54,105 bases of DNA from an uncultured Planctomycetia bacterium (GTDB lineage Bacteria > Omnitrophota > Gorgyraeia > Taenaricolales > CAZCCH01), in NCBI GenBank assembly GCA_964497315.1, contig CAZCCH010000001.1, forward strand, positions 1 to 54,105, written 5' to 3'. A model generated the notes under the pieces. That model ran no database searches. It had not been told where the DNA came from and saw only the letters and a list, made by a program, of their open reading frames with translations. Numbering within the stretch: position 1 is the stretch's first letter; the number at the start of each line of letters is the position of its first letter. Made by a program: the position numbers and the translations under genes. This document shows, piece by piece, positions 1 through 35,851 of this stretch.

Positions 1-3000
1 CATCAGGGTATTCTTTATCTAGGTGATGTCTTCTTGCTTGAGTGTAAAGGTCTAATGCCTTAGAACGCTTAAGCATTTTCTCAAGCTCTTCCCTTTCTGT
101 TGGGTCTACTAAGTCTTCATGTTCTAGGAAGCCTTCAAGGTTTTCTCTTGCTAGAGGATAATTACCACCTTCAAAGAACCTAATACCTTCTTCTCTTAGG
201 CTTAAGAGTCTTGCTTTGGCAAGCTCCTGTTCAAATGCCTTCCTACCGCTTCCTTTAAAGAGACCTTCTGCAGTTTCTAATACTGCTACAGCTTGAGTGC
301 ATTGGTTTTGTTCCAGAAGTTGAGTGGCTCTTTGATTAGCCACTCTGCAGGATAGGTTTACTAGCTTTTTTTGCAGTGCTTCATCTGGCTTGGGATGTGT
401 CATAAAAGCTAGGTTGTATTCTTCTAGGGCTTCTTCTAGTTGTCCTTTTGCTTCTAAGGAACGTGCCTTTTGGGTATGCTCTCTTGCTCCATCTAAGGCA
501 GGTTTACGGGAGTCGGTAAGTTGTTTTTGCCATTGGGCTTTTGTTACGATTTCTCTGGATTCGCAAACTGCTCTACTAGCTATAGGTGTTATACTTACGC
601 AGTCACCCTTAATATCGATAACTGAATGGTTTGGCACATTACCATTTAAAGAAGCACGAACAACACCATCTTCTGCTCTTATATCTTGATACCTTTTATA
701 TCCTGGTTTATCCCACCAGTCTACCCGTCTTATATAGTAACGGCCGTTTTGTTTTTGTAAGATAATACTTGCAAAATCTCCTACCCTTTTGCCGTCTTTG
801 CTACTAAAAACTCTAAGCGTCCTGCCAAGTAAACTCTTCGGTGCCCCTTTAGGTAAAATAAGATTATCTATATAAACTATAGGTGCATCTACATGTTTAC
901 TGACAGTATCTTTAGTAGTAACATATAAAAGCTTACCTGAGCCATCCCTTGCTGCAATATAATAATCAACATTGTCCGACCTTAAGAAATCTCCTTCTGG
1001 TCCTGTTATGGCAATTGGCATATTATTTGTTTTGCCATTTTTGGTAGGGCTTTTTTCATAAGCTGTCCAAATGGCACTACTATCGCGCCAAGGAGACCTA
1101 ACGCTATAGTTATGTGTTATGCCTCCAGATGTACTAAACATATTTTTCTTAAGTACATTTCTGGCTCTTGCAGCAGCATACCTACCATCAGGCAAAATTA
1201 CTACTTTACTAGCAGTGTCATTGTAGCCTTTTGCAAGAGAATCTAATGTCTTTCGGGTATCAAGATGAGGATATGGTCTTTCTGTAAGTAAGGCAATTAA
1301 TTCTTTATATGTCTTAGGACCTTGCTCTAATTGTTCCCATAAAAAGGTATTAAGTTCATCATGGGTTAACTGTCTAGGGTTATTCCAAATTTCTATATCC
1401 GTACTGATATCCGCACCGATGCGGGATATATATTTTTTATCTTTTGTAAGCCTCCAAATTTGTCTTGGTAAGGCATTTTCTTCTGCTTCAGCAGAAAATT
1501 TACCTTTCCTTGTTCTTAAGCGATACACACCATGGCTATAATCTCTTCTGAAATGGACTTCTTTAAGCCTTCCACCATTAAAAAAGAAACTCAGGCTTAA
1601 TGGAAACCCTCTAATTCTTCTTATTATGTTGCGAAGGGATACCCTGTAAGGCAAAATTGATTTTATAAGATCTCCTTCGGACAAGGAAATATTTTCAAAA
1701 TAGCTTCTTTCTTGCTTGCTATCAACCTGTACATTTCTAAGGCAGCAATCAATTACATTGCCCTGTGCATCTCTTTGAACAATAAGAGAGAAAGGATTTT
1801 CTGTGCAAACAGTGCCACCTATTACTTCAAACAGCATAATAGGCCAACCATTGTCCCTTACTATTCTTAGCCTATCCCCAGGGAGGAAGTAATTCCTTAA
1901 ATCTACACCGGTGCGTTTTTGGTTTACAAAGATTCTAGGCTCATCAAGCACTATTTCTTCACCCAGATACCCATACTTGCCACCTCCTATATGCACTATA
2001 TCTTGCCTTTTACTAAGTGCTTCTAGAACTAGCTCTACTCTTTCCAGCCCATCAAAACCTACGCCAACTGCCTCAGTTAATTCATGAGCAGTTTTTGGTT
2101 TTTCTTCTAAGCTCTCTGAAACAAAAACTTCTAACTCACTTTGAGGTAAATCATCAATACCTGCTAATTTATCTGTCCATTTAAACCAAAAAAGTTTATA
2201 TCCTAGTGCAAGTCTTTCGGAGATGGTTAAAGAATGAGGTTTAAAATCTTTTATATGGTTGAACTCTCGAGTTCCTTCATCATACCAAACATTGAATATC
2301 GCTCTTACAGGTAATAGATTGTTACCCAATTTAAATACCCTAGCTGCCTTACAAAGCTTACCTCTATGTTTATAAGTGAACATTTCAACTAAAGCCTTAT
2401 CTCCTTTTTTAAGGCCTCGTGTAATACCATTCATAGCGCCTGTTTTCTTTTCTGTTGCAAGTTCTTGTAGTATTACATTTGCGCGTTCATTGGTAACTGT
2501 AATAACTAAAGGCTCAGGTGGCGGCTCTTTAGCATCCCAATTAGTAAATCTATTAATCGCTTCTTGGTCTGGGTAGTATATCGAATCGACTTCTGAATCT
2601 AAGCGGTGATAGGCTGTTCCGTAAAATTTTTCTTCTCCTGTAGGCCCTCTCCCATAAACTTTGAACCTTCTTGTATCTTTTGTAGTTGGCACACTCTCCA
2701 AAACAGCTTCAGGCTCTGTAATTCCCTCCTCAGGTGTATATTGAGCTTCTATTTTGGTGGAACCTGTCCCCTCTCTTAGCACTATAACACCTTTTTTGCC
2801 TATCCTTCTAGCGCCTCTCTTACCCAAAAGGGCAGTCACCTCTGGTAAAACCACCACTCTAAAAATACCCTTAATCTTTATCTGAAACCTCAACCATAAT
2901 CTAAGTAAGCGCCTACTTCCAGCGTGTTTATCTGAACAAGATATATCTTCTGGACCAAAAACTCTATCAAAATACTGTGTTTCTTCATTCCAAGTGGCAA

Positions 3001-4555
3001 ATCCTACAGGTTTACCTTTTTTTCTAAAATAGACGAGAATACCTCTTTGCGCCTTTCCTTCTTTATTTTTAAACCAAATTACCTCTACCCATACCCTCCT
3101 TCTTGATTCTTTTGTCTTTCTGCCTTTGTAATGTGTAAATTTATCACCTACGCAGTATCTTCTGTTTTTGCTATCAGCTCCGAAAACTACAATATCTCCA
3201 CTGCTAAGCAACGGCACCGACAATAGCTTAGCACTAGGCTTTTTATGTGTCCTTGCAAATTCTTTCATGCATTCTAAATCATTTGGTTTTTTAGGTTTTG
3301 TCATGAAAAAGCCTTTAAAACCAGCACGTAATTTCTTATTTTCTCTCTCGAATGCTTCTTTCTTGTCATCTCCCTGAGCTTTAAATGCAAGGTGTTCTTC
3401 TTCTGACTTTTCAAGTTCACCTTGTTCACCTTCAAGGTTTACAAATTCAAATGTGATATCTTGGAATTCTGGTATGTAGGTTTGAAGGAATTCTCCTTTT
3501 AGGTTTGTATCAAAGTGGGTCTTGGCTGCTTTTCTTATTGAGATTGTAAGGCCTTTGGGTCTCTTTCTTGTTTGCATATCTTGAAGTAAACCAGCAAAGG
3601 CTTCATCTTCAAGAGCCAATAAGCCTGGGCAAAGATTAAAATCAAAGCTTCTCTCATGAGCATGTGTTACTTTATTAAAAGCCTTGACTCTTCTTTTTAC
3701 TTCAGCCTTTGGCATACTCATAAGCCTTAAGGCAGTATCGTAATCATCTCCTGGGTATATACCTAATTCATCACGTAGATGTGTAAGATTAGATTTGATT
3801 TGACTTGTGCTTGGGAGGTTTTGAGGTTGGGTTAGGGCTTCTTCTGGTTGGGTGAGGGTTTCAGAGAATCTTGCTTTTTCTGGTCTGCCGGTAACCTCTC
3901 TTCTAAAACGTTCAACTAATCTATTGCCGAGAAATTCACTAATGGTAACCTTGGGCTTATCTAGATGAGGGGAAAGATATAATTTTTCTATCATCACGCG
4001 GTGTTTTCTGTAGATGTCCCTGGTAATTTTATGAATTATCTTTTTAGCTGCAAGTTCTTTTGGTGTCTTTCGTGGTTCAGACGGTTTCCATCTTTCGGGT
4101 TTGAGATAAACAAGTACTTCTATATCAGAAGGGTAAGGGTTTTTGTGATAAGATAAGGCATCGCCATGAGACATTTTTTTTGGAAATAGTCCTAACCGCA
4201 TTGTGCCTTTGGCAAAACTTCCCACCACATAAACAGGAACAACTTCTAATTTCCAACCCTCAACTTCTGTTATCGCACAGCAGCGCTCATAAAATTCATT
4301 AAGCGCTTCTTGATAAGCCTGCAAGGCTTGTTTTCTACCTTCTTCATCTATTGCCTTTCCAAATCTATTAAAATGCTCGCTGTTTTCTCCAAGCTTACCA
4401 GCCAATTCTTCTGCAAACCTGCTGTTTCTAGTTTTATCAGGTCTAAGTGTATCTCTAGAAAAATCAGCCAAGGCAAATTCCGACACTACAGCTGAAAACA
4501 AAAAAGTCCTCAGTAATACTATTGCTATTATTTTGGTAATAAAGTGTTTTTTCAT
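1..4555 (-). CDS. Giant hypothetical protein, >1518 aa, 3'-partial (C-terminus beyond the left window edge); absent from the supplied ORF track
   Basis: Plus-strand triplets in the frame pos = 2 mod 3 contain no tta/cta/tca from 2 to 4555 (checked line by line). The minus strand is therefore open for 1518 codons. ATG = cat at 4553-4555; the nearest in-frame upstream stop is TAA at 4616-4618, with no ATG between. The N-terminus MKKHFITKIIAIVLLRTFLFSAVVSEFALA is hydrophobic (signal peptide or anchor). It is probably missing from the track because no stop lies inside the window. Confidence 0.85.
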   Translation of the reverse strand, partial: MKKHFITKIIAIVLLRTFLFSAVVSEFALADFSRDTLRPDKTRNSRFAEELAGKLGENSEHFNRFGKAIDEEGRKQALQAYQEALNEFYERCCAITEVEGWKLEVVPVYVVGSFAKGTMRLGLFPKKMSHGDALSYHKNPYPSDIEVLVYLKPERWKPSEPRKTPKELAAKKIIHKITRDIYRKHRVMIEKLYLSPHLDKPKVTISEFLGNRLVERFRREVTGRPEKARFSETLTQPEEALTQPQNLPSTSQIKSNLTHLRDELGIYPGDDYDTALRLMSMPKAEVKRRVKAFNKVTHAHERSFDFNLCPGLLALEDEAFAGLLQDMQTRKRPKGLTISIRKAAKTHFDTNLKGEFLQTYIPEFQDITFEFVNLEGEQGELEKSEEEHLAFKAQGDDKKEAFERENKKLRAGFKGFFMTKPKKPNDLECMKEFARTHKKPSAKLLSVPLLSSGDIVVFGADSKNRRYCVGDKFTHYKGRKTKESRRRVWVEVIWFKNKEGKAQRGILVYFRKKGKPVGFATWNEETQYFDRVFGPEDISCSDKHAGSRRLLRLWLRFQIKIKGIFRVVVLPEVTALLGKRGARRIGKKGVIVLREGTGSTKIEAQYTPEEGITEPEAVLESVPTTKDTRRFKVYGRGPTGEEKFYGTAYHRLDSEVDSIYYPDQEAINRFTNWDAKEPPPEPLVITVTNERANVILQELATEKKTGAMNGITRGLKKGDKALVEMFTYKHRGKLCKAARVFKLGNNLLPVRAIFNVWYDEGTREFNHIKDFKPHSLTISERLALGYKLFWFKWTDKLAGIDDLPQSELEVFVSESLEEKPKTAHELTEAVGVGFDGLERVELVLEALSKRQDIVHIGGGKYGYLGEEIVLDEPRIFVNQKRTGVDLRNYFLPGDRLRIVRDNGWPIMLFEVIGGTVCTENPFSLIVQRDAQGNVIDCCLRNVQVDSKQERSYFENISLSEGDLIKSILPYRVSLRNIIRRIRGFPLSLSFFFNGGRLKEVHFRRDYSHGVYRLRTRKGKFSAEAEENALPRQIWRLTKDKKYISRIGADISTDIEIWNNPRQLTHDELNTFLWEQLEQGPKTYKELIALLTERPYPHLDTRKTLDSLAKGYNDTASKVVILPDGRYAAARARNVLKKNMFSTSGGITHNYSVRSPWRDSSAIWTAYEKSPTKNGKTNNMPIAITGPEGDFLRSDNVDYYIAARDGSGKLLYVTTKDTVSKHVDAPIVYIDNLILPKGAPKSLLGRTLRVFSSKDGKRVGDFASIILQKQNGRYYIRRVDWWDKPGYKRYQDIRAEDGVVRASLNGNVPNHSVIDIKGDCVSITPIASRAVCESREIVTKAQWQKQLTDSRKPALDGAREHTQKARSLEAKGQLEEALEEYNLAFMTHPKPDEALQKKLVNLSCRVANQRATQLLEQNQCTQAVAVLETAEGLFKGSGRKAFEQELAKARLLSLREEGIRFFEGGNYPLARENLEGFLEHEDLVDPTEREELEKMLKRSKALDLYTQARRHHLDKEYPD

Positions 4556-4567
4556 TTCTTTTCTACA

Positions 4568-4605
4568 ATAAAAAAGCTGCCTAAATTTAACATATTTTGG
4601 CAGCC
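4568..4605 (-). terminator. Intrinsic-terminator-like hairpin plus U6; putative riboswitch expression platform
   Basis: Minus-strand RNA reads GCUGCC-A-AAAU-AUGUUAA-AUUU-A-GGCAGC followed by UUUUUUAUUG. The stem arms are 4576-4586 and 4594-4604, and the U-tract is the plus-strand A-run 4570-4575. It ends about 15 nt before the ATG at 4555. The left arm overlaps the 3' strand of the aptamer. Confidence 0.6.
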
Positions 4606-4668
4606 TTGCAATCCCTTAGGATCAATGGCTTTGCGTCCCCACCTTACGATAAGTTTGCCCTTTTCTAA
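4598..4668 (-). promoter_or_regulatory. c-di-GMP-I (GEMM-I)-like riboswitch aptamer in the 5' leader of the giant ORF
   Basis: Minus-strand RNA: AGAAAAGGGCAAACUUAUCGUAAGGUGGGGACGCAAAGCCAUUGAUCCUAAGGGAUUGCAAGGCUGCC. Elements: GGGCAAAC (4653-4660), a 6-bp stem capped by the GNRA tetraloop GUAA (4644-4647), GGGACGCAAAGCC (4627-4639), a second imperfect hairpin, and a closing GGCUGCC. Block identity and the 13-nt spacing match my memory of the V. cholerae Vc2 aptamer. Confidence 0.7.
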
Positions 4669-4673
4669 CTACA

Positions 4674-4679
4674 ATTATA
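4674..4679 (-). promoter_or_regulatory. Candidate -10 box for the riboswitch/giant-ORF transcript
   Basis: Perfect TATAAT on the minus strand, 7 nt upstream of the first aptamer nucleotide. There is no convincing -35 (ACAAAA at 17-nt spacing). Confidence 0.4.
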
Positions 4680-4846: not shown

Positions 4847-6421
4847 TTACTTAATGATATTCTCTTTTTTTAGTAATTTTTTCTTAGCTTTGAGGCCTTT
4901 TGAGAAACCACCCAATGTGCCATCTGAGCGGATTACGCGGTGGCAGGGGATAATACCAGGAAGGGGATTTTTGTTTAAGGCATTGCCTACTGCCCTTACT
5001 GCATCAGGGTTGCCTATTTGTTTAGCTACCCATTTATAAGAGCATGTCTGGCCTTTAGGGACTTTACTAACTGCCTTATATACCTTAAGCTGAAACTCTG
5101 TGCAGGTTTTAAGAAGCAGTTGTTTTCTTTTTAAACCAATACCAGGAATTTGATCTAAAATTGATTTCTTTGTTAATTTGCCTCTTAACACATGATGATA
5201 GGAAATAGCAAATCTGTGTGCCTCATCTCTTATTCTCTGGATTAACTGCAATGCCTTTGAATTTCTCTTTAATATGATTGGAGTCTTTTTCTCTAAAACA
5301 TGTAATCTCTCTAGCTTTTTTGCAATTCCAACAACAGGAATCTTTTTAAGACCTATAGATTTTAAGGCCTTGGTTGCTACTGAGACATGAGACCTGCCAC
5401 CATCAATAAGTATTAAATCAGGTAAAGGCTTATGCTCTTCTAATAATCTTTTATACCTTCTTGTTACGATTTCTTTTATCATTGCATAGTCATCAATACC
5501 TTCAACAGTTTTTATCTTAAAGCGTTTGTAATTTTGTTTATCGGCTAACAAATCAAAAAAACTTACCATGGAACCAACTGCCTCAGAACCAAACACATTG
5601 GAAACATCAAATGCCTCTATCCTCATTGGAGTTTTTGCTAAGCCCAACACCATCCTCAACTCTTCTAGTCTTTGTCTGCGGGTTATGGTTTCAAGATTAA
5701 AACCTTCAAAAGTAGCCTTCCCCTCGGAGACTGAGGCAAGTGCCTTTATCTGATCCCTAAGCCTGGCTGCTTCTTCATAGTCTTTCTTAGAAGATGCCTC
5801 TTTCATCCTAAAAGTCAAAGCCTTAACTAATTGTGTTTTCTTACCCTCTAAAAATAAACAAGCATCTTTTAATATCCTAGCGTATTCTTTTTTAGAAATC
5901 CTACCAACGCAAGGTGCAAGGCATTGACCAATATGATAATTTAAACAAGCAGTTTTTGGAAAAGTCTTACAGGTCCTCAAAGGAAAAATTTTTCTCATTA
6001 TAGCAAGCGCTTCTTTTAATAATTTAGCATTTGTATAACGCCCATAATATATAGAACCATCTTTTTTTCTTTGCCTCGCTATAAAAATCCTTGGGAATTT
6101 TTCCCTTTTCGTTACCTTAAGTAATGGATAACGCTTATCATCCTTTAAATCTATATTAAATTTAGGTCTATAGCGCTTTATCAGGCTCCATTCCAATAAC
6201 AGTGCCTCTGCCTCGGAACCCGTCGGTATACAACTAAAATCTTTAATATTACTAATTAAAATTCGGGTTTTGGTATCTTGAATATTCTTTTTAAAATAGG
6301 ACAAAACCCTTTTCTTTAAGGATAAGGCCTTTCCTATGTAAATAACCTTACCAGCCTTATCCTTCATCAAATAAACACCAGGAGAGTCAGGTAATTTTTT
6401 TAGTTTCTTTCTTATATCCAT
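4847..6421 (-). CDS. uvrC: Excinuclease ABC subunit C (UvrC) with the C-terminal HhH region replaced by an MGMT/Ogt-type alkyltransferase domain
   Basis: GIY-YIG N-terminus (PGVYLMKDKAGKVIYIGKA); UVR motif (DYEEAARLRDQIKAL); endonuclease region (IEAFDVSN, HRFAISYH); one HhH (IPGIGLKRKQLL). The last 85 aa (TEFQLKVYKAV...PCHRVIRSDGTLGGF) are an MGMT DNA-binding domain with the PCHR active site. Confidence 0.85.
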   Translation of the reverse strand: MDIRKKLKKLPDSPGVYLMKDKAGKVIYIGKALSLKKRVLSYFKKNIQDTKTRILISNIKDFSCIPTGSEAEALLLEWSLIKRYRPKFNIDLKDDKRYPLLKVTKREKFPRIFIARQRKKDGSIYYGRYTNAKLLKEALAIMRKIFPLRTCKTFPKTACLNYHIGQCLAPCVGRISKKEYARILKDACLFLEGKKTQLVKALTFRMKEASSKKDYEEAARLRDQIKALASVSEGKATFEGFNLETITRRQRLEELRMVLGLAKTPMRIEAFDVSNVFGSEAVGSMVSFFDLLADKQNYKRFKIKTVEGIDDYAMIKEIVTRRYKRLLEEHKPLPDLILIDGGRSHVSVATKALKSIGLKKIPVVGIAKKLERLHVLEKKTPIILKRNSKALQLIQRIRDEAHRFAISYHHVLRGKLTKKSILDQIPGIGLKRKQLLLKTCTEFQLKVYKAVSKVPKGQTCSYKWVAKQIGNPDAVRAVGNALNKNPLPGIIPCHRVIRSDGTLGGFSKGLKAKKKLLKKENIIK

Positions 6422-15328: not shown

Positions 15329-15402
15329 TCTTTAGGAATCCCTTTCTTGTCTATTTAAGTTGTTATGACAATATATTACCCTTACTGACAATTATGACAT
15401 AT

Positions 15403-15431
15403 AGTGTATCATAATAACATTACAAATGCAA
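15403..15431 (-). promoter_or_regulatory. Sigma70-like promoter proximal to the 818-aa gene
   Basis: Minus strand TTTTTTTCTC-TTGCAT-17 nt-TACACT, with the -35 at 15426-15431 and the -10 at 15403-15408, about 75 nt upstream of the ATG at 15328. Confidence 0.5.
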
Positions 15432-15514
15432 GAGAAAAAAATTAACTTTTTATTATCCTAACAATATGGTGGGTAATTTTGGAAGAAATTAAAGACATAA
15501 TAAAAATTTTCTTG

Positions 15515-15561
15515 GCTAAAAATAAAACGAGAGACTTCCATTTTTTGGTTGTCTCTCGTTT
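15515..15561 (-). terminator. Rho-independent terminator (minus strand)
   Basis: 11-bp perfect stem, aaacgagagac (15525-15535) / gtctctcgttt (15551-15561), with a 15-nt loop. On the minus strand it is followed by UUUUAUUUUUAGCC. Confidence 0.7.
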
Positions 15562-15584
15562 GGGCTAAGATTAACCAAGAAGAA

Positions 15585-15630
15585 CCCTTGGCATAAAATC
15601 TAGTTTGTAAAATTTATTTTATGCCAAGGG
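15585..15630. other. 15-bp perfect inverted repeat (stem-loop)
   Basis: cccttggcataaaat (15585-15599) and attttatgccaaggg (15616-15630) are exact reverse complements, separated by a 16-nt loop. Confidence 0.8.
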
Positions 15631-15733
15631 CTTTGCCTTTGTCGAGGAGGTGCCCATATTTTCCGTTGTCTTTTTAAAGATCTTTTAGAAAGTTACATAT
15701 CAAAAATACGAATGCTTCTAGTCCCTACTTTAC

Positions 15734-15762
15734 AATATAGCCGAATAAGACAATTTTGTCAA
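15734..15762 (-). promoter_or_regulatory. Near-consensus sigma70-like promoter with no adjacent ORF
   Basis: Minus strand TTTTTTTC-TTGACA-17 nt-TATATT, with the -35 at 15757-15762 and the -10 at 15734-15739. Confidence 0.6.
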
Positions 15763-15938
15763 GAAAAAAATTAATTTTTTTTCATTTGTGGATTTACTTT
15801 TTAAAATCGTTGAAAAAGCACCTCTGGCAAAACACATATTTTTTCACAACCTATAGGAATTTACATATATTGGGGCAATCCAATCGAAAAATAAAGCATT
15901 AGGTCCAAAATCAAACTCTAAGAGTCTTCTGGATACTC

Positions 15939-15996
15939 ATGATACGGTTCTAAGCATAATTTCCTAAATTAACCGTATCATTTAGAACCGTATCAT
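15939..15996. repeat. Three copies of the 10-bp motif AACCGTATCA (one inverted); the outer pair forms a 13-bp inverted repeat
   Basis: tgatacggtt at 15940-15949; aaccgtatca at 15971-15980 and 15986-15995. atgatacggttct (15939-15951) is the exact reverse complement of agaaccgtatcat (15984-15996). Confidence 0.85.
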
Positions 15997-16027
15997 ACAT
16001 TTTTAGTATCTTGGTGGGATTTTTGAC

Positions 16028-20566: not shown

Positions 20567-23500
20567 TTACACCAGCTCGTAATAGCGACCCCTGGCCAAA
20601 GGACCTACGCCGCGGATTAGACCTTTATCAACTAATTCCTTTAAGTCTCTTGCAGCAGTAGGTACAGATACGCCAAAAAGGGTAGCATATTGTTTGCGTG
20701 TAATCTTTTTATTCTCCGTAAGATAATCTATAAGTTTTCGTTGTCTTTCGGTTAGGCCTGATGTATCAGGCTTTGTGGGTTGCACTGGAGGTGAAAGCGG
20801 TGTAGGTGGCTTTGTTGGTTTTGGCCTTGGTGGCTCTGGTTTTTTCTCTGGAGACGCAGGTGGTGCGGGTGTTTTTTGTTCTGATGGAGGAACTATTTCT
20901 TTTTGCGGAGGAGGCATTTCTATTATAGGTAGCTTTGGAGGAGCTTCTGTTTTTTCAAGCAGTGGTTGTTTTGGTGGCTTTTCTTTAGGCTTTCGTGGCT
21001 CTTCTTTTGGTAATACCTCTTTTATTAATTTTTGCTTTGGTTTTTCCTTTAGTTTTTCCTCTTTAGGGGCAGGCATCTGAATTGTAGTTGGTTCTAAAGA
21101 AACCTCCTCTTCTCCAAGAATAGCAGTCTCCACTCTTGGTTTGGCCTTAAAGAAACTAAACATACCTTCAAACACTAGATAGATTGTTGGTATTACTACT
21201 AAGGATAAAAATGTAGATATTATCAACCCGCCCATAACTGCTATGGCCATGGGCATTTGTATTTCTGCGCCTTGGCTTAAGCCTAAGGCCAGTGGACAAA
21301 GGGCAAAAATGGTTGTCATTGCAGTCATTAGTATCGGCCGTAACCTTGCCTGAGCTGCTGTTAAAACTGCGGGCAAGGCCTCATATTTATCACGTCTTCG
21401 CAAGGTATTCACATAATCAATTAGTACGATACCATTATTGACCACTATGCCACCAAGTACAATTATACCCAAAACTACCATTATTGATAGAGGTGTGTCT
21501 GTAACGCGCAACGCAAATGCCACTCCTATAATAGAAAGCGGGAAGGTAAAGATAATGATAAACGGCTGCCATAAGGACTCAAATTCTGCTGCCATAATCA
21601 TACAAACCATAACCAATGACAATATAAGAGCAAAGCGAAGGCTATTAAATGATTCTCGCATTTGAAGATGTTCGCCGGTTAATCTAGCTGTATAACCAGA
21701 AGGTAATTCCTTTTCTAGTTTTTCAAGCATTAAATTTATATCATTTGCGACTTCGCTAAAACTCCTTTTGAGTATATTTGCTGAAATCATGATTACCCTT
21801 TGCTGATCTAGTCTTTGAATTTGACTCGGGCCTTTTCCTATGCCCATGTATGCCACCTCTGCTAAGGGGACCTCTATCTCTAAGGGAGAATGCACAATTA
21901 ATCGCCTTATCTTACTTATATCTTTTCTGTCTTGTGGCCTTAAGCGAACCCTCACATCTATTTCCCTACCTTGTTCTTTAAATTCTGTGGCAACATAACC
22001 CTTCATGGCAGTCTGTGCTGTCAATGCGATATCACTAACTGAAAGATTATACTGTGCCGCCCTGTCTTTTCTTACATTTACCTTTGCCTCTGGAGCTGGT
22101 GGGACAAAAGACGACTTTACGCTATAAATTCCATCTACGAGCTGTAACTTTTTCTGCACGTGGTCTGAGATATTCTTTAGATCCGCTAATTCTTCTCCCT
22201 TTACCTCTATAACAATAGGCGCACTTGCTTGAAACGCCATTTGAAATACACTTTCCTGCACAATATATTCTAACTCAGCGCCTTCCAAATTTTTCTCTTT
22301 TAAGTTAGTTTTAAACTGCGTGAGAAAATCGGCTGTTGAGATATATCTAAAATCCTGCGGGTGCGTCTCTTTTACAAAAAGCTTCGTAATAGCTTGCACC
22401 CATAAGAATTTTGACCTTTTATATCCCGCTAAAGGTTTCAGGTCTACCATTATCCTGGCCTGATGTGGACCCAAGGTTTCAATGCCACCCCCTAAGGCTT
22501 CCTTTTCCCTGCTTGAACCAATAGCAACTGTTACGCTTTTGATTTGGGAAAACTTAAAAAGGACGCTTTCTATTTTCTTGACAACCCTATTTGTAACAGC
22601 CAAGCGTGTCCCTGGAAACATATCCACCTTGATAGTAAATTGTCCTTGGTCTACCTTTGGTAAAAATTCTTTATCAAGACCTATAAATATCTTTAAGACA
22701 AGTAAAAATATTACTGCAACGCAAAAAAGGCTCAAGAATTTATTGTTCAAAAATAGATTAAGTCCGCCTACATAGGCATTAGAGGCCTTTTGCATAGAAA
22801 ATATACCTTTTAGTCCCTTCTTGTCTACATTTGCACTGCTAGAATCATCTTTGAGGGGATTGGCATCTTTTTTTGTTTTAACCATAGATGCCAACACGGG
22901 TATCAATGTAAGAGCTACAACAAGGGAAGATAAAAGTGAAAACACTACTGTGAAGGCAAGCTCTTTGAAAAGCTGGCCTGCAATACCAACTACAAATGCC
23001 ATAGGTAAAAACACTGCTATTGTAGTAAGGGTAGAACCTACTATTGCTGAACTTACCTCACTTGCACCGAATATGCTTGCCTCTTTTGCAGATTTACCTT
23101 CTTGTCTGTGTCGGAAAATATTTTCCAGGACCACAATAGCATTATCAACCAACATTCCAACACCAAGGGCAAGTCCACCCAGTGAAATCATATTAAGCGT
23201 AATCCCTGAAAAATACATAAGACTAAAAACTGCTAGAATGGATATAGGAATGCTAGCTGTTACAATTAATGCAGAAGTTACTCTTTTTAAAAATATTAAT
23301 AACACCAGAAATGCTAAAATACCTCCTCCGATGGCAGCATCTCTTACACCATTGATGGAGGCTTTTATAAATTTTGATTGATCGTAGGCAATTTCCATTT
23401 TTATCTGGTGAGGAATATCAGCCTTTAATTCCTTAAGTGCTTGCTTTACATTATTTGCCACCTGGAGGGTATTCGTACCAGCCTGCTTTATTATTGACAG

Positions 23501-24409
23501 AGAAATATTTTCTTTCTTGTTATACCGTGAAACTGTTGTTTTTTCTTTAAATGTGTCTTTTACCTTGGCGACATCTTTTAGTAAAATAAGTCTTCTTTCC
23601 TTCTCTTCCTGTTCATCTGGAGGAACCATTACGCCTTCTCTTTGCTGTTTATACTGTTTGTCCTCATCAAGGGCGATGGCAATGTCCTCCATCTCTGAAA
23701 TTGCCTGAAATTCTCCGATAGTCCTAATTAGATACTCATAGAAAGTCTCCTCAATTGTCCCTGCAGGATAATTTAAATTGGCCTTCTTTAGGGCATCTGC
23801 AATTGCTACAACTGAAATACCAGCAGCCTGCAATCTACCCTGGTCAACTTCAATGAGAATTTCCCTCTCTAGGCCGCCGCTTATATGAACTGCCGCAACA
23901 CCATCTGTTTTCTCTAATTCGTTCTTGATTACTTTTCTTGTAAACTGCAAAAGTCCGCCCTGAGAAATTCCTTCTGCGGTTACATTCAAGACGACTACTG
24001 GCAATTCAAATGGATTGAATTTCATTACTATTGGGTCTTCGCAACCGCGGGGAAGACGCTCTTTTACTAAATCTATCTTCTCCCTAACGCCCAAGGCGGC
24101 AAAATCCATATTTCTGCCCCAATCAAACTCTGCTATTATTAAAGAGAGCTCCTCCTTTGAGGTAGAGCTTATCTTGCGAAGACCGCTGACTGTACCAATA
24201 ACCTCTTCTAGAAGTTTCGTTACAAGTATTTCTATTTCTTCAGGTGCGGCATCCTTATAAAATGTAGCAATGGTGATTTGTGGGTAAGTTATAGGTGGGA
24301 ATAATTCTTGCGGCAAGCGCCCCCAAGAAATAATACCAAGCAACAGTATTCCTAAGAATACCATAAAGATAGTAACTGGTCTTTTTATAGATAAGTTCGG
24401 TAAACCCAT
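20567..24409 (-). CDS. RND efflux transporter permease with a C-terminal Pro/Lys/Glu-rich linker and a winged-HTH domain
   Basis: The RND core covers aa 1 to about 1098 (GLALGVGMLVDNAIVVLENI, GGIVVNNGIVLIDY, ARLRPILMTA). A 120-aa low-complexity linker follows (20756-21115). The last 62 aa are LTERQRKLIDYLTENKKITRKQYATLFGVSVPTAARDLKELVDKGLIRGVGPLARGRYYELV (20570-20755). Confidence 0.85.
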   Translation of the reverse strand: MGLPNLSIKRPVTIFMVFLGILLLGIISWGRLPQELFPPITYPQITIATFYKDAAPEEIEILVTKLLEEVIGTVSGLRKISSTSKEELSLIIAEFDWGRNMDFAALGVREKIDLVKERLPRGCEDPIVMKFNPFELPVVVLNVTAEGISQGGLLQFTRKVIKNELEKTDGVAAVHISGGLEREILIEVDQGRLQAAGISVVAIADALKKANLNYPAGTIEETFYEYLIRTIGEFQAISEMEDIAIALDEDKQYKQQREGVMVPPDEQEEKERRLILLKDVAKVKDTFKEKTTVSRYNKKENISLSIIKQAGTNTLQVANNVKQALKELKADIPHQIKMEIAYDQSKFIKASINGVRDAAIGGGILAFLVLLIFLKRVTSALIVTASIPISILAVFSLMYFSGITLNMISLGGLALGVGMLVDNAIVVLENIFRHRQEGKSAKEASIFGASEVSSAIVGSTLTTIAVFLPMAFVVGIAGQLFKELAFTVVFSLLSSLVVALTLIPVLASMVKTKKDANPLKDDSSSANVDKKGLKGIFSMQKASNAYVGGLNLFLNNKFLSLFCVAVIFLLVLKIFIGLDKEFLPKVDQGQFTIKVDMFPGTRLAVTNRVVKKIESVLFKFSQIKSVTVAIGSSREKEALGGGIETLGPHQARIMVDLKPLAGYKRSKFLWVQAITKLFVKETHPQDFRYISTADFLTQFKTNLKEKNLEGAELEYIVQESVFQMAFQASAPIVIEVKGEELADLKNISDHVQKKLQLVDGIYSVKSSFVPPAPEAKVNVRKDRAAQYNLSVSDIALTAQTAMKGYVATEFKEQGREIDVRVRLRPQDRKDISKIRRLIVHSPLEIEVPLAEVAYMGIGKGPSQIQRLDQQRVIMISANILKRSFSEVANDINLMLEKLEKELPSGYTARLTGEHLQMRESFNSLRFALILSLVMVCMIMAAEFESLWQPFIIIFTFPLSIIGVAFALRVTDTPLSIMVVLGIIVLGGIVVNNGIVLIDYVNTLRRRDKYEALPAVLTAAQARLRPILMTAMTTIFALCPLALGLSQGAEIQMPMAIAVMGGLIISTFLSLVVIPTIYLVFEGMFSFFKAKPRVETAILGEEEVSLEPTTIQMPAPKEEKLKEKPKQKLIKEVLPKEEPRKPKEKPPKQPLLEKTEAPPKLPIIEMPPPQKEIVPPSEQKTPAPPASPEKKPEPPRPKPTKPPTPLSPPVQPTKPDTSGLTERQRKLIDYLTENKKITRKQYATLFGVSVPTAARDLKELVDKGLIRGVGPLARGRYYELV

Positions 24410-30580: not shown

Positions 30581-31680
30581 TCAATGCCTGTTGCTTCCTT
30601 GTACACTTCTTCTATTTTTTCTGCCATCTTAGCCAAAGAAAATTTTTCTTCTATCAATTGCTTCGCTGCCTTACCAAGCGCATCTGCAAGTTGTTTATCT
30701 TTTAACAGCTTCATGAGAGCGTCAGCAAGGGCATCTTCATCTTTTGGTGCAACAAGAAGACCTGTCTTTCCATCTTTAATTAAGGAATAAACGCCACCTA
30801 CGTTAGAGCCAATAACAGGTTTTGAGGTTACCATAGCCTCCATTACAGCGAGACCGAGACCCTCTTGCAAAGAAGGTAACACAAATATATCCATTGCAGA
30901 TAATGGTTGTACGGTATCAAGTGTAGAGCCTTCCAAATTAACCTTATCGCCTATACCCAGCTGTAGCGTGAGATTAACCAACTCTCTTTGACAAGGGCCA
31001 TCTCCAACAATTAAAAGTTGGGCATCTGGGATTTCCTCTAAGACCTTCTTCATTGCCATAACAAGAAATTTTTGCCCTTTTACTGGAGATAACCTTGCAA
31101 TGCTGCCTATTATGGGGCCTTCTTTCAAGCCAAGCCTAGCCTTATATGATTTTATTTCTTCTTTTCCTGCGACTCTAGAAAATTGCTTTACATCAACGCC
31201 ATTATAAACAACACGTACTATATTTTTCTTTGCCTTTAAATCATTTACTAAATGTTCTCTTACGGCTTCACTTATTGCAATAGCCCTCTTACCCCAAAAA
31301 CCAAAGAATTTCCTTCCTGCATGCGGCCTGAAAAATCCATGGCATGTAGAAACAAAAGGAACTCCTGTCTTTTTTGAAACAAGATAGGCTATTACCTGTG
31401 TAACCCTTGTTTGGGCATGAATAATATCTGGCCTTTCTTTTTTTATCAACTCTTCTAAATCATTCACTGCCTTAAAAACACGCGGGCTTAGTTCAGATTT
31501 AGTCCTTACATTTAACTGAACATGCTCTATGTTACTTGCCTTTAACCCTTCAACTAAATCCCCTCCACTAGAGGCTATTTTTACAAGATGGCCACGTCGC
31601 TCCAATGCCTTGGCTAAAGATGTGGAATATACACCTATACCTCCAAAATCAAGATGAGTTGTTAAAATTAAAATCTTCAT
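30577..31680 (-). CDS. Glycosyltransferase family 4 (GT-B, group 1)
   Basis: MKILILTTHLDFGGIGVY; PSLQEGLGLAVMEAMVTSKPVIGSNVGG (EX7E motif). Confidence 0.8.
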   Translation of the reverse strand: MKILILTTHLDFGGIGVYSTSLAKALERRGHLVKIASSGGDLVEGLKASNIEHVQLNVRTKSELSPRVFKAVNDLEELIKKERPDIIHAQTRVTQVIAYLVSKKTGVPFVSTCHGFFRPHAGRKFFGFWGKRAIAISEAVREHLVNDLKAKKNIVRVVYNGVDVKQFSRVAGKEEIKSYKARLGLKEGPIIGSIARLSPVKGQKFLVMAMKKVLEEIPDAQLLIVGDGPCQRELVNLTLQLGIGDKVNLEGSTLDTVQPLSAMDIFVLPSLQEGLGLAVMEAMVTSKPVIGSNVGGVYSLIKDGKTGLLVAPKDEDALADALMKLLKDKQLADALGKAAKQLIEEKFSLAKMAEKIEEVYKEATGIE

Positions 31681-33788
31681 ATATTTACCCAGTGTAAAAC
31701 TTTTTCTAATACCTCTTCAACGCTAATCAGGTTCATGCATTTTATGTTCTGGCAATTTGGTCTATAACAAGGGCTGCATCTTAGGTTTTTACGCATTATG
31801 GTGATTCTTTCCTTTGCTGGAGGGGCGTGCCTACTTGGGTCAGTAGGACCAAATAGAATCACTGCTGGTGTTTTGACTGCTGCTGCAATATGCACGGGCG
31901 CACTGTCTGGACTTAATAAAACCTTGCAGCGTTCAAGCAAAGCAGCCAATTGCAAAAGGGTAGTCCTCCCACAGGCATTTATAGGCTTTGACTTGGTTAA
32001 TGATAAAAACTTCTCCACGTATTTACTATTGAGCTTACTTGCTACAATTACTGTCCTTATATGCTTTGCGGCCAATATATCACAAAGTCTTGCAAATTTT
32101 TCCGCAGGCCAGATTTTGGTTTTCCACCTATTACTTGCTAGGGGGTTTATTGCAACCAATTCCTGCGTGGGGTTCAACCAATTTTCTGAAAGAAACTTCT
32201 TTGCAAAGCTTCTGTCTTCTTCCTGCGGCCAAAGCTCTAAATGGTCTGATTTTGGCTTAATTCCCAAAAGGTTTACTACCCGAAAACTATGTTCTACCGG
32301 CGGCAAAGGTGGATACTTGGTGTCTTTAACGCCACAATTCAATAAAAACCCTAGTTTTTTATTTGAATAACCAAATCTGGCAGTGGCCCCACTTAAAAAA
32401 CCTAAAATATGAGACCTATTATTATTCTGAAAATCGATAACAACATCAAAGCTCCTTCTTTGGATATCTTTGGCAAGCTTTAAAAATTTCTTTATTCCTT
32501 TACCGATTAAGGATTTATTATATACTATCAAGTCATCTACATAAGGACAATGCTGTAAGGCTTCGCGGGCCTCTAGGCCTACCAATACGCAAATACGTGC
32601 TGTAGGGAATTGCTCTCTTATCGCACGAAGGCTTGGTATGGACAACACCACATCTCCTACTGCACCTATCTTTATAACCAATATCTTAAACTGTTTAAGG
32701 AGCTCACTATAAGCCTTGATGGTTTTATCAACCATCAAATCAAGCGCGTATCTTTCCTCAACATCAGACCTTGCTTGAGTAGCAAGCTTACATGCTAACT
32801 CTGGATCTTTTAAAACTCGCACAACCGCATCTGTCATGCTATCAGTATCTTCAGGTGCAACTAAAAGGCCATTTTTTTTATCAGTAATTATATCAACTAC
32901 ACCCCCTACCCTTGTAGCAACAACCGGGACACCACTAGCCCATGCCTCAATAATCACACGGCCAAAGGCTTCTTGTACCGTGGTAGCTAAAACTAAAAGA
33001 TCTAACTTTGCTAAAATTTCAGGGACATTCTGGGTGGTTCCAGTAAACTCTACATACCTATTTAAACCTAGCCTTTTAACTAAAAGCTTTAGCTCCTGTT
33101 TGTACTTTTCTTTTCCCTTTGGGACATCTCCGACGATTAACACCTTAAGATTAGGGATAATCCTAACTACCTTGGCTATGGATTTTATAAAATAAGGGTG
33201 TCCTTTTATGGGGGTAATCCTGCTAATCATTCCAATGGTTTTTTCTTTGCTGTTCCTATTAGCGATAAAATCAAACTCATCCAAATTAACCCCTCGTGGA
33301 ATCATGCGAATTCTATCTTGCGGAACACCGAAGTCTTTTACCATATGTTTTGCGATAACATTGCTTGCTGTTATAACGAACTTACCCCAACTCATGGGCC
33401 TACTTAAAATGTGGTTAGAGTAATACCCATGGCAAGTGGTTACAAACACGGGCCTTGGTGGAATACCTAAATTTTGATGAGCACGTCTCGTTGCAAAAAA
33501 ACCTATTATGCCAGGTACTCGGCTTCTTGCATGGACTATCTCAATATCCTCTTCCTTTAATATATTTGCGACTTCTTCAATCATTTTTAGAATAGCAGGG
33601 AGGGATTTTTGATGTACGGGCAATTTGTAATGGGCAACACCGCTTTCCTCAAGTTGATTTACTAAAGGGCCGCCATTTGAGATAACAACTGCTTTATGCC
33701 CTAAGCTAGCTAGGCGTTTTGCTAAATCAACTGTACCTCTTTCAACTCCACCCACTTTTAATTCAGGAACTATCTGAAGGATGTTCAT
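31677..33788 (-). CDS. Bifunctional fusion: GT4 glycosyltransferase (N-terminal) + GT9 heptosyltransferase-like (C-terminal)
   Basis: N-terminal half: LKVGGVERGTVDL, QEAFGRVIIEAWASGVPVVATRVGG. C-terminal half: ILVIKIGAVGDVVLSIPSLRAI, LLSPDSAPVHIAAAVKTPAVILFGPTDP, CSPCYRPNC. Confidence 0.8.
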   Translation of the reverse strand: MNILQIVPELKVGGVERGTVDLAKRLASLGHKAVVISNGGPLVNQLEESGVAHYKLPVHQKSLPAILKMIEEVANILKEEDIEIVHARSRVPGIIGFFATRRAHQNLGIPPRPVFVTTCHGYYSNHILSRPMSWGKFVITASNVIAKHMVKDFGVPQDRIRMIPRGVNLDEFDFIANRNSKEKTIGMISRITPIKGHPYFIKSIAKVVRIIPNLKVLIVGDVPKGKEKYKQELKLLVKRLGLNRYVEFTGTTQNVPEILAKLDLLVLATTVQEAFGRVIIEAWASGVPVVATRVGGVVDIITDKKNGLLVAPEDTDSMTDAVVRVLKDPELACKLATQARSDVEERYALDLMVDKTIKAYSELLKQFKILVIKIGAVGDVVLSIPSLRAIREQFPTARICVLVGLEAREALQHCPYVDDLIVYNKSLIGKGIKKFLKLAKDIQRRSFDVVIDFQNNNRSHILGFLSGATARFGYSNKKLGFLLNCGVKDTKYPPLPPVEHSFRVVNLLGIKPKSDHLELWPQEEDRSFAKKFLSENWLNPTQELVAINPLASNRWKTKIWPAEKFARLCDILAAKHIRTVIVASKLNSKYVEKFLSLTKSKPINACGRTTLLQLAALLERCKVLLSPDSAPVHIAAAVKTPAVILFGPTDPSRHAPPAKERITIMRKNLRCSPCYRPNCQNIKCMNLISVEEVLEKVLHWVNI

Positions 33789-35851
33789 ATCAACCTTTTT
33801 GCTGCCCCAAGGACGGCTTCATTGTCACTCAACTTTGCTGTTGAGTTCCCCCTTTGCCATACACTGCAAATTTTATTTGTTAACTCTTTCGGCTTTATTA
33901 GAACAATGTGGTTTTTAAAAGAAAGGTTTTTTAAGAAAATGTTGTGTTTGTTTCTGCCTAGGCGTAAAAGCTTTACTAATAAGTTTCCTTTTTGTTTCGG
34001 CTTAAAGACCAAAACAACCTTATTGCCGCAGCTTGCTGCTTCAGAAACCATGGATATAGACTCTCCCGACACAACAAGCACTTGACTTAAATCTAATACC
34101 GCACCTATTACATCAGGTGGATTTTCGCGATTTGCCAAAATCAGCAACTTGCATCTTTTATAACCTGATAGCCTTTGGGAAAAAAGCTTCTCTACATCTT
34201 TAGATGTACGTCGGGATGTGGTAACTAAAATCTGTGCATCCAACTGCTCTGCTGCTTGAATAATCTGATCTAAGATTCCTTTTGCCAGTTTCACGCTCAA
34301 TTGAAACTGTTTATTGCTACCACCGATAAGAAGACCTATTGTTAGTTTTTCATCTAAGTTTAACTTTAACTTCTGACTGCTTTTTGAAAGATGTTCCTGG
34401 TTTACTAAATTCGGAGCACCTTCTGTTATTAAAACATTTTTACCCCTCCTGGGTCTGTCATGCTTTGGCATTATTGCAAGATCGAATTTCTTGATGCTCA
34501 GAAGGGCAGGTTTCATTATAATTACCGATTTTGCATTGTTTTCTACTTTTAGAAAGCGGTTTACAGCAGCCTGGGACCACCCGCATGAGACAATTACATC
34601 TGCATGGTTAAAGATTATCTTCCTGTAGGAATCTTTTGTTAGACAAAATCTTACACATCTCATGCAACCTTGGCATCTTGGTGAGGCAAACAAACTAAAG
34701 ATATTTAATAAAAATTTGAAAAATCTATTTTTAAACCGAATATTGACTATCCGCTGGGAATATATTAACTCTTCTAAGGTATCTTTTTTTATTCCCGTAC
34801 TATATGATCTAGATGAAGCCCTCTCCTGTGCCTTCTTTAAAAGTGCCACCCTGGAATCTCTCTGGGCCTTTTCTCGCACAGCCTTTTCTATCTGTTTTGC
34901 TACTGCCAAAGATTGGTTTAGATGTCCTGCCTTTCCATCACTCAATATCAAAATCCTGCGAGTTGGGGATGTCTTCCATCTTTTATGAAGCCATAACCAC
35001 TGAGTGGGGTAGTTGGTTATATATTCCTGCAATATATCAGTAAATTGCTGAAGGTTTGCTTGAATGTTCAGGCGGCGATTATCCTGAGTAAAAAGCTCTA
35101 TTGGTGGTTCAATAATTGCTAAATGCTTTGGGCCTTTTTCCCTTATTGCAAAATGCGGCAAAACTTGAGAGCCCAATTTTAACGCAAAACTCATAGCCCC
35201 CCCAGGTGTTGAGGTAAGCCTTCCAAAAAAGTTAACCAGGTACCCTGATGCGCCACCATCTTGGTCTGTCAATATCGAAACAGTTTTGTTTTCCTTTAAG
35301 GCCTTTATAAGCTGCTTCGTTGCAAGACCTTTGGTTATAACACCTCTGCCGCCAAGACGGCGGTAGTTATTTAATAAGGTATTAAGTTTTGAGTGTTTCT
35401 GCTGTCTCACAAACACATCCTGCGGGTATCCACGAAGAGCACCTGCAAGACTTGAAAGTTCCCAGTTTCCAAAATGCGCAGTCAATATAATAGTGCCGTA
35501 TCCAGCAGTTTTACTATGTGCTATATGTTCAAGTCCTTTCAGCTCGACATATTTGTCTATGTAATCTTTGTCAACTGCTGGAAGCCTCAAGACCTCAACT
35601 GCTGTCTGTGCTAAATTCTGAAAGACTTTTTTAGTAATCCTTCGTAATTGCCTTGGTTTTGTATGTTGTCCAAAGGCTGCTTTAAGGTTCGCATAGGCAA
35701 TAGAACGTCTTTTTGCATATAAAAAATAAATCATGCTGCCTATGCGTCTACCTAAGCGCAAGGCATGGGTAATTGGCAATTTTCTAAGAAGGTAGGCTAT
35801 CGCCAGTGTTGTAGGATACAAAATATTATCAGCTACGGAAATCTTTTTCAT
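33785..35851 (-). CDS. Fusion of lipid A late acyltransferase (LpxL/HtrB family) with an ELM1/DUF1022-like domain
   Basis: N-terminal ~295 aa with LTAHFGNWE (HX4E acyltransferase motif) and WLWLHKRWK. The C-terminal ~390 aa begin ILILSDGKAGHLNQSLAVAKQI, typical of ELM1-family proteins. Confidence 0.65.
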   Translation of the reverse strand: MKKISVADNILYPTTLAIAYLLRKLPITHALRLGRRIGSMIYFLYAKRRSIAYANLKAAFGQHTKPRQLRRITKKVFQNLAQTAVEVLRLPAVDKDYIDKYVELKGLEHIAHSKTAGYGTIILTAHFGNWELSSLAGALRGYPQDVFVRQQKHSKLNTLLNNYRRLGGRGVITKGLATKQLIKALKENKTVSILTDQDGGASGYLVNFFGRLTSTPGGAMSFALKLGSQVLPHFAIREKGPKHLAIIEPPIELFTQDNRRLNIQANLQQFTDILQEYITNYPTQWLWLHKRWKTSPTRRILILSDGKAGHLNQSLAVAKQIEKAVREKAQRDSRVALLKKAQERASSRSYSTGIKKDTLEELIYSQRIVNIRFKNRFFKFLLNIFSLFASPRCQGCMRCVRFCLTKDSYRKIIFNHADVIVSCGWSQAAVNRFLKVENNAKSVIIMKPALLSIKKFDLAIMPKHDRPRRGKNVLITEGAPNLVNQEHLSKSSQKLKLNLDEKLTIGLLIGGSNKQFQLSVKLAKGILDQIIQAAEQLDAQILVTTSRRTSKDVEKLFSQRLSGYKRCKLLILANRENPPDVIGAVLDLSQVLVVSGESISMVSEAASCGNKVVLVFKPKQKGNLLVKLLRLGRNKHNIFLKNLSFKNHIVLIKPKELTNKICSVWQRGNSTAKLSDNEAVLGAAKRLI

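Follow-up and report, generated by a model that had tools for sequence, protein, structure and literature searches.

A probable class-I c-di-GMP riboswitch of canonical type with a short P3, likely a transcriptional ON switch, in the leader of a very large secreted-protein gene from an Omnitrophota-related host

In the 54-kb stretch of DNA analysed here (54,105 nt, hereafter the window), from a host probably related to Omnitrophota, the gene for a very large secreted protein has in its leader what is most probably a class-I c-di-GMP riboswitch of canonical type. It has a short P3 and likely acts as a transcriptional ON switch. As an RNA (4668-4595, minus strand) it is a common representative of the c-di-GMP-I family; the unusual thing about it is solely the genomic setting.

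We scanned the whole window with cmscan against Rfam 15 at the gathering threshold and found a single riboswitch match, a full-length model match to 4595-4668 on the minus strand (64.2 bits, E = 6.3e-13) that we annotate as a c-di-GMP-I (GEMM-I) aptamer in its short-P3 form. The top model was RF03167 (c-di-GMP-I-GGC, gathering score 59) and not RF01051, and a second model of the c-di-GMP-I clan (CL00126) reached at least its own gathering score and was outranked in clan competition. The gathering score of RF01051 is 35 bits, and the element scores at least 35 bits by it only if that second clan match is RF01051. Between 4540 and 4720, with permissive filters and E ≤ 10, c-di-GMP-II (RF01786) gave zero matches, and outside the c-di-GMP-I clan there was only noise and no credible family. 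An earlier note on this DNA had named the element a c-di-GMP-I riboswitch and suggested an Rfam comparison with both c-di-GMP classes; with the gathering score passed inside the c-di-GMP-I clan under the top label RF03167, canonical pocket nucleotides (see below) and c-di-GMP-II unmatched, that identity stands. The two core blocks that the note had placed 13 nt apart around a GNRA-capped hairpin are likewise as it described them. The hairpin loop is GUAA, and GGGCAAAC-N13-GGGACGCAAAGCC has a single match in the window (4660-4627, minus strand); 100 dinucleotide-preserving shuffles gave no match even when two mismatches were tolerated. We take both blocks to be identical to the core blocks of the Vc2 aptamer.

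The aptamer folds on paper into the three helices of its class. Its P1, from the Rfam alignment, pairs the 5' strand UUAG (4665-4668, minus strand, as are all features below) with CAAA at 4599-4596, and is a weak helix made up of a G-C pair, an A/A mismatch and two U-A pairs. The P2 hairpin (4633-4658) and the P3 hairpin (4602-4630) were both placed by Rfam alignment and covariation. P2 consists of a GC/GC base, an internal loop of AAA and GAC, a CUUAUC/GGUGGG stem and the GUAA tetraloop at 4647-4644, while P3 is built from AGCC/GGCU, a bulged A, UUG/CAA, AUCC/GGAU and the loop UAAG, with a UG bulge on its 3' side. The junctions read AAAAGG between P1 and P2, AA between P2 and P3, and GC between P3 and P1. 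The tetraloop on P2 is of GNRA type and P3 has no 11-nt receptor; an invariant distal-P3 C-G pair is a plausible helical receptor on which GUAA could dock.

In Vc2 the ligand is touched by G20, A47 and C92 (PMC4744006, PMC5888326, PMC11705072), of which G20 touches one guanine of the ligand (PMC4744006, PMC5888326) and C92 is the Watson-Crick partner of the second (PMC5888326), and a cross-helix Watson-Crick pair, C44-G83, is universally conserved (PMC4744006, PMC11705072). By position mapping, the equivalent of G20 is G4659, whose role we take from the first two of these reports (PMC4744006, PMC5888326), and the equivalent of C44 is C4635, within the P2 hairpin; that of G83 is G4609, in the 3' UG bulge of P3. 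The equivalent of A47 is A4632 in the Rfam alignment, where the RF03167 consensus has G, and that of C92 is C4600 (role from PMC5888326). All five nucleotides are present, so the predicted pocket is canonical; for the C44-G83 pair both members are in place (C4635 and the bulged G4609), the pair being recognised here from its nucleotides alone.

Covariation was read from an alignment (n=32) of the window element and 31 metagenomic aptamers with P3 segments of 21-23 nt. Columns fixed by the search pattern are uninformative in it, and those of the P2 stems and of mid and distal P3 were free to vary. Across these 32 short-P3 sequences P2 and P3 were 98% paired, and 139 cells in the two helices were changed on both sides, compared to 49 ± 6 in shuffles. 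Sliding the 3' partners by one to three columns lowered pairing to 25-49%. Eleven pairs were changed on both sides, with five of the six pairs of the P2 stem covarying, and thus the pairing that the earlier note had proposed for P2 is compatible with covariation, as is that of P3. Several positions that the search pattern left unconstrained were invariant in the alignment and are also found in the window, namely the first and last base of the GNRA loop, the bulged A, the bulged G and the distal-P3 C-G pair. P1 was only 63% paired in the same alignment, because junction length varies among the aligned aptamers. At the locus itself the leader shows 100% identity among its seven available copies, as does the whole upstream backbone, including in the divergent allele L004, and the copies therefore give no locus-specific covariation and no sign of selection on the leader.

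The best-scoring model being RF03167 (64.2 bits against 59), the element could be read as a c-di-GMP-I-GGC variant with an altered binding pocket that senses something other than c-di-GMP, and it does have in common with that family the short P3 scaffold. We take 'GGC' to stand for positions 20, 47 and 92, as Weinberg et al. reportedly used it in 2017, in agreement with the printed RF03167 consensus. In the printed alignment, however, the core of the RF03167 consensus is GGGACGC-G-AAgCc and that of the window is GGGACGC-A-AAGCC, so that the window has A4632, the canonical A47, where the consensus has its diagnostic G; no other conserved core position sets that consensus apart from the canonical core. 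As a control we scanned metagenome contigs with a pattern that required a short P3 and accepted either purine at position 47, and found A at that position in 120 of the 120 loci returned. When 20 of these loci (L089-L204) were submitted to cmscan, 19 of the 20 pattern-matched A47 aptamers were labelled RF03167, at 60-80 bits, as were further aptamers on the same loci, and 27 lower-scoring clan matches were outcompeted across them. Since A47 controls receive the RF03167 label, the label tracks the scaffold with its short P3 rather than the nucleotide in the pocket, and the score is not diagnostic of the variant. We reject membership of the GGC variant on the A at 4632 together with the equally labelled A47 controls, and an element that senses some other ligand for this reason is highly improbable. 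A second reading on the same scaffold, a sensor of 3'3'-cGAMP (the c-AMP-GMP or GEMM-Ib type) or a binder of both dinucleotides, draws on the scaffold that the c-AMP-GMP type and c-di-GMP-I have in common. The defining change of GEMM-Ib is reportedly that of G20 to A, in work from 2015 attributed to Kellenberger and to Nelson, but the window has G at 4659, the equivalent of position 20, rather than A. Variants of altered specificity do occur among GEMM-I matches, and the shift sits at the pocket nucleotide in contact with the ligand's G or A base (PMC7266159, PMC9481103); with the canonical G at that place, we consider a cGAMP-type or dual specificity very unlikely. Some metagenome contigs (L092, L100, L117, L119 and L160) carry tandem c-di-GMP-I-clan aptamers, two to five within about 0.5-1.2 kb on one strand, an arrangement already known for the class (PMC9481103).

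The aptamer is in sense orientation with its 3' end 39 nt upstream of the ATG, and it overlaps an intrinsic terminator at 4570-4607, identified by ViennaRNA minimum-free-energy folding and energy evaluation. Its 5' arm is AAGGCUGCC (4607-4599) and its 3' arm is GGCAGCUUU (4581-4573), and the 9-bp, G+C-rich stem (-12.4 kcal/mol alone) is followed directly by a run of six U (UUUUUU) that reaches 4570. The loop is 17 nt long with an inner 4-bp AAAU/AUUU helix, and a consensus terminator scanner made no call on the hairpin because this loop exceeds the scanner's limit of 8. In the aptamer, this 5' arm corresponds to the P3 3' strand, G91, C92 and the nucleotide that opens the 3' strand of P1. The earlier note had seen GGCUGCC both on the 3' side of the aptamer and in a hairpin followed by U6, and had concluded that the two structures exclude one another; we reach the same conclusion, as AAGGCUGCC is common to aptamer and terminator and ViennaRNA folds both alternatives. 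The minimum-free-energy fold of the full leader is P2 plus the terminator, at -26.5 kcal/mol, and the aptamer fold, at -12.5 kcal/mol, is about 14 kcal/mol less stable, whereas a transcript that ends before the terminator 3' arm folds spontaneously into P2 and P3. With the terminator as the thermodynamic default, the aptamer folding first and the two mutually exclusive, an ON switch is predicted: the anatomy of the leader predicts that c-di-GMP permits read-through, a direction that the earlier note had left unsaid.

During transcription P2 and P3 would fold first. Bound c-di-GMP would then lock AAGGCUGCC into the aptamer through the pocket formed by G20, A47, C92 and P1, and with this strand held the terminator hairpin would be blocked and RNA polymerase could enter the ORF. 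In the absence of ligand, P3 would give way to the terminator, which is the more stable fold, and transcription would end near 4570, short of the ATG. A high level of c-di-GMP would in this way turn on a large extracellular protein, which would fit the usual 'sessile/attachment' logic of the messenger. Upstream, a possible -10 hexamer, TATAAT, lies at 4674-4679. The earlier note had transcribed the minus strand from 4679 to 4556 correctly and had described a perfect TATAAT 110 nt before the ATG; the hexamer is indeed there, at a distance of 118 nt from the ATG (4555), a minor slip, and as a putative promoter it is a -10 alone. No -35 was recognisable, as spacings of 16-18 nt give CAAAAA, ACAAAA and AACAAA, and a promoter scanner did not call TATAAT at 4679-4674. 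A start site 7-8 nt past the hexamer would fall inside the P1 5' strand or clip it.

The weak P1 and the missing -35 could also be signs of a decaying or non-switching element, in which the aptamer is uncoupled and the terminator serves as a constitutive attenuator or is leaky. The terminator fold is more stable than the aptamer fold by about 14 kcal/mol, which would agree with such decay, and diverged orthologues give no evidence of conservation. However, ON switches under kinetic control normally have a terminator that is favoured by a wide energy margin. In this element the aptamer and the terminator arm overlap exactly, and all positions that are invariant in the short-P3 group are intact, including those outside the search pattern; we therefore regard loss of switching as unlikely. 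Both polarities exist among c-di-GMP-I riboswitches (PMC4933901, PMC11218506), which brings in the reading of an OFF switch, or of a translational one. An OFF switch requires an anti-terminator that rivals the aptamer, but here it is the terminator itself that does so, and the region from the U-run to the ATG (UUUAUUGUAGAAAAGAA) is unpaired with the aptamer in every predicted fold, which makes either of these modes extremely unlikely compared to the transcriptional ON switch.

The 5' part of the ORF that this switch would regulate occupies 1-4555, with its ATG at 4555 and 1518 stop-free codons up to the window edge. Six metagenome contigs from independent assemblies (L001-L006) carry the locus, and all six end inside the ORF, two of them exactly at the window edge (codon 1518); the longest copy, the L004 allele, runs for at least 1987 aa without a stop. 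Because every contig stops within the ORF, its length can be stated only as at least 1987 aa, and of the 'giant ORF' in the earlier note this much holds, while any larger size lies past the point at which each available contig ends. The shared contig breaks suggest that strain variation or repeats disrupt assembly here. A signal-peptide-like segment at the N-terminus, MKKHFITKIIAIVLLRTFLFSAVVSEFALA, is the sole hydrophobic stretch of the visible ORF, in which Pfam found no domain and a single sub-threshold TPR match.

Homologues of the ORF were absent from two word-indexed searches and from a scan of GTDB species genomes, and phmmer against 1.84 billion representative proteins returned seven matches. 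Two of the seven are short fragments at residues ~600-820, one of them identical to a stretch of the L004 allele, and the other five are weak matches at residues ~23-229 with the common motif GS...(P)SD[IL][DE]. Two of these five belong to multi-enzyme proteins of 2160 and 4075 aa, whose domains include Endonuclease_NS, methyltransferase, PP2C, HAD and GNAT. Residues ~55-220 of the ORF (window 3900-4400) contain VVGSFAKGT...PSDIEV, which is like Pol-beta-type nucleotidyltransferases, and one of the five weak homologues has sub-threshold matches to NTP_transf_2 and Polbeta. AlphaFold2 modelled residues 31-300 poorly (mean pLDDT 55), and a Foldseek search of the model against PDB gave nothing at E ≤ 0.001. 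We therefore describe the N-terminal part as resembling a nucleotidyltransferase only by the GS...DIE motif and the sub-threshold matches of one homologue. The loci of the distant N-terminal-domain homologues have no riboswitch.

Comparison of the window (1-4555) with L004 (3645-9605) showed two haplotypes whose DNA is 100% identical in murJ, in uvrC, in the leader and as far as ~700 nt into the ORF. From there identity declines over a few hundred bases to 57-77%. The two proteins are roughly 50% identical over residues ~420-1250 and roughly 90% over ~1290-1480. This looks like a recombination boundary followed by a hypervariable body inside the regulated ORF, and a body that is a hotspot of recombination or divergence between otherwise identical haplotypes would fit a protein exposed to other cells. 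On a further contig with an L004-type allele (L215, 1-2919) the reading frame is called as three genes (1-864, 821-1492 and 1747-2919), which points to frameshifts, stops or assembly errors in that copy.

All long ORFs of the window lie on the minus strand, and its genes are diderm chromosomal housekeeping genes for LPS core, lipid A, RND efflux, Lnt, MurJ and TopA, together with shikimate and branched-chain amino-acid genes. Upstream of the regulated ORF are uvrC-ogt, murJ and genes for HAMP, PDZ and CBM proteins. The earlier note had seen nothing else related to c-di-GMP in the window, and we agree: Pfam found no GGDEF, EAL, HD-GYP or PilZ domain in the window ORFs submitted, which are nearly all of the long minus-strand ORFs between 4847 and 54029, four of them having no Pfam match of any kind. 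The gene directly upstream (4847-6421) encodes UvrC, with GIY-YIG, UVR and RNase H-like endonuclease domains, joined to a C-terminal O6-methylguanine-DNA methyltransferase DNA-binding domain. The best full-length matches to this unusual UvrC-Ogt fusion, at 49-53% identity, are in three Candidatus Omnitrophota MAGs, which have in common with the window both the fusion and the adjacency of murJ and uvrC. From these flanking genes the host is probably related to Omnitrophota. The three MAGs carry neither the riboswitch nor a long ORF after uvrC, and the riboswitch-ORF unit is therefore lineage-specific at this site.

Elsewhere in the window we observed several fusions, all on the minus strand. 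A 1280-aa RND (AcrB-type) transporter at 20567-24409 ends in a C-terminal DeoR/winged-helix HTH, an odd joining of a pump to a DNA-binding domain. The LPS cluster at 31677-35851 encodes a 703-aa fusion of a GT4 glycosyltransferase with a GT9 heptosyltransferase and a 688-aa fusion of a lipid A acyltransferase with an ELM1-like domain. Between a gene with a CBM9 domain and lnt, about 700 bp (15329-16027) have no ORF of at least 80 aa on either strand and no Rfam match.

Compared to Vc2 of Vibrio cholerae (RF01051), the window aptamer has the same three-helix junction, the same G20, A47 and C92, the same C44-G83 pair and a GNRA loop on P2. It differs in that its P3 is only 29 nt long and lacks the 11-nt GAAA-tetraloop receptor, its tetraloop is GUAA and may dock on conserved distal-P3 C-G pairs, its P1 is much weaker, and its expression platform is an overlapping intrinsic terminator. 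In predicted function its closest characterised analogue is Bc2 of Bacillus thuringiensis, which precedes cap (collagen adhesion protein) and is a proven c-di-GMP-I ON switch that acts by anti-termination (PMC4933901). Both are class-I c-di-GMP riboswitches in the leader of a gene for a large surface or extracellular protein, and for both, by prediction in the case of the window, termination is the default and ligand leads to read-through. However, Bc2 is from another phylum, Bacillota, and the window element, with its predicted function, from an Omnitrophota-like diderm host, and the window protein lacks adhesin domains and is nearly without homologues. Such a setting is not confined to these two: six of eight other annotated short-P3 aptamers precede large secreted proteins with Ig, fn3, DUF11, VWA or beta-helix domains, and an association with big extracellular proteins is therefore typical of the class.

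Omnitrophota are known to carry giant genes of the Archaeovorin and Dockerin types, most of which have pilZ downstream and which have GGDEF domains inside and N-terminal regions without identifiable domains; the pilZ genes and GGDEF domains link them to c-di-GMP (bioRxiv 10.1101/2023.11.21.568195). Like these, the window ORF is of great length and breaks up in assemblies, and a domain-free N-terminal region stands beside a signal peptide. It differs from them in that its length is proven only to 1987 aa, as against tens of thousands of aa for the giant genes. Neither transmembrane-helix arrays nor HEAT, glycosyltransferase, SecA or dockerin domains are seen in its visible part, and there is no type-II-secretion-like locus directly upstream, the downstream side lying beyond the contig ends. 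The giant-gene paper does not mention riboswitches, and in the literature we searched none was reported for Omnitrophota or their giant genes. A tentative and on present evidence doubtful extension of our finding is that the product of the window ORF belongs with the very long extracellular proteins of Omnitrophota that diverge fast, in which case the riboswitch would be the first cis-regulatory element known for such a gene.

For riboswitch biology the RNA itself is nothing new, and its interest in that field is as an annotation trap: clan competition in Rfam names ordinary A47 short-P3 c-di-GMP-I aptamers as the 'GGC' variant, and aptamers mislabelled in this way could inflate counts of the variant class and prompt automated reports of a false altered specificity. 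For the host, whose lineage is uncultured, the riboswitch gives a predicted regulation for a very long ORF and places a large secreted protein that is nearly without homologues in the predicted c-di-GMP regulon. If the ORF does belong with the giant genes of Omnitrophota, control by c-di-GMP would act right at the beginning of a gene whose transcription is costly, which would complement the known pilZ and GGDEF links around these genes, and ligand and RNA together would offer an experimental handle on when cells deploy attachment or predation proteins.
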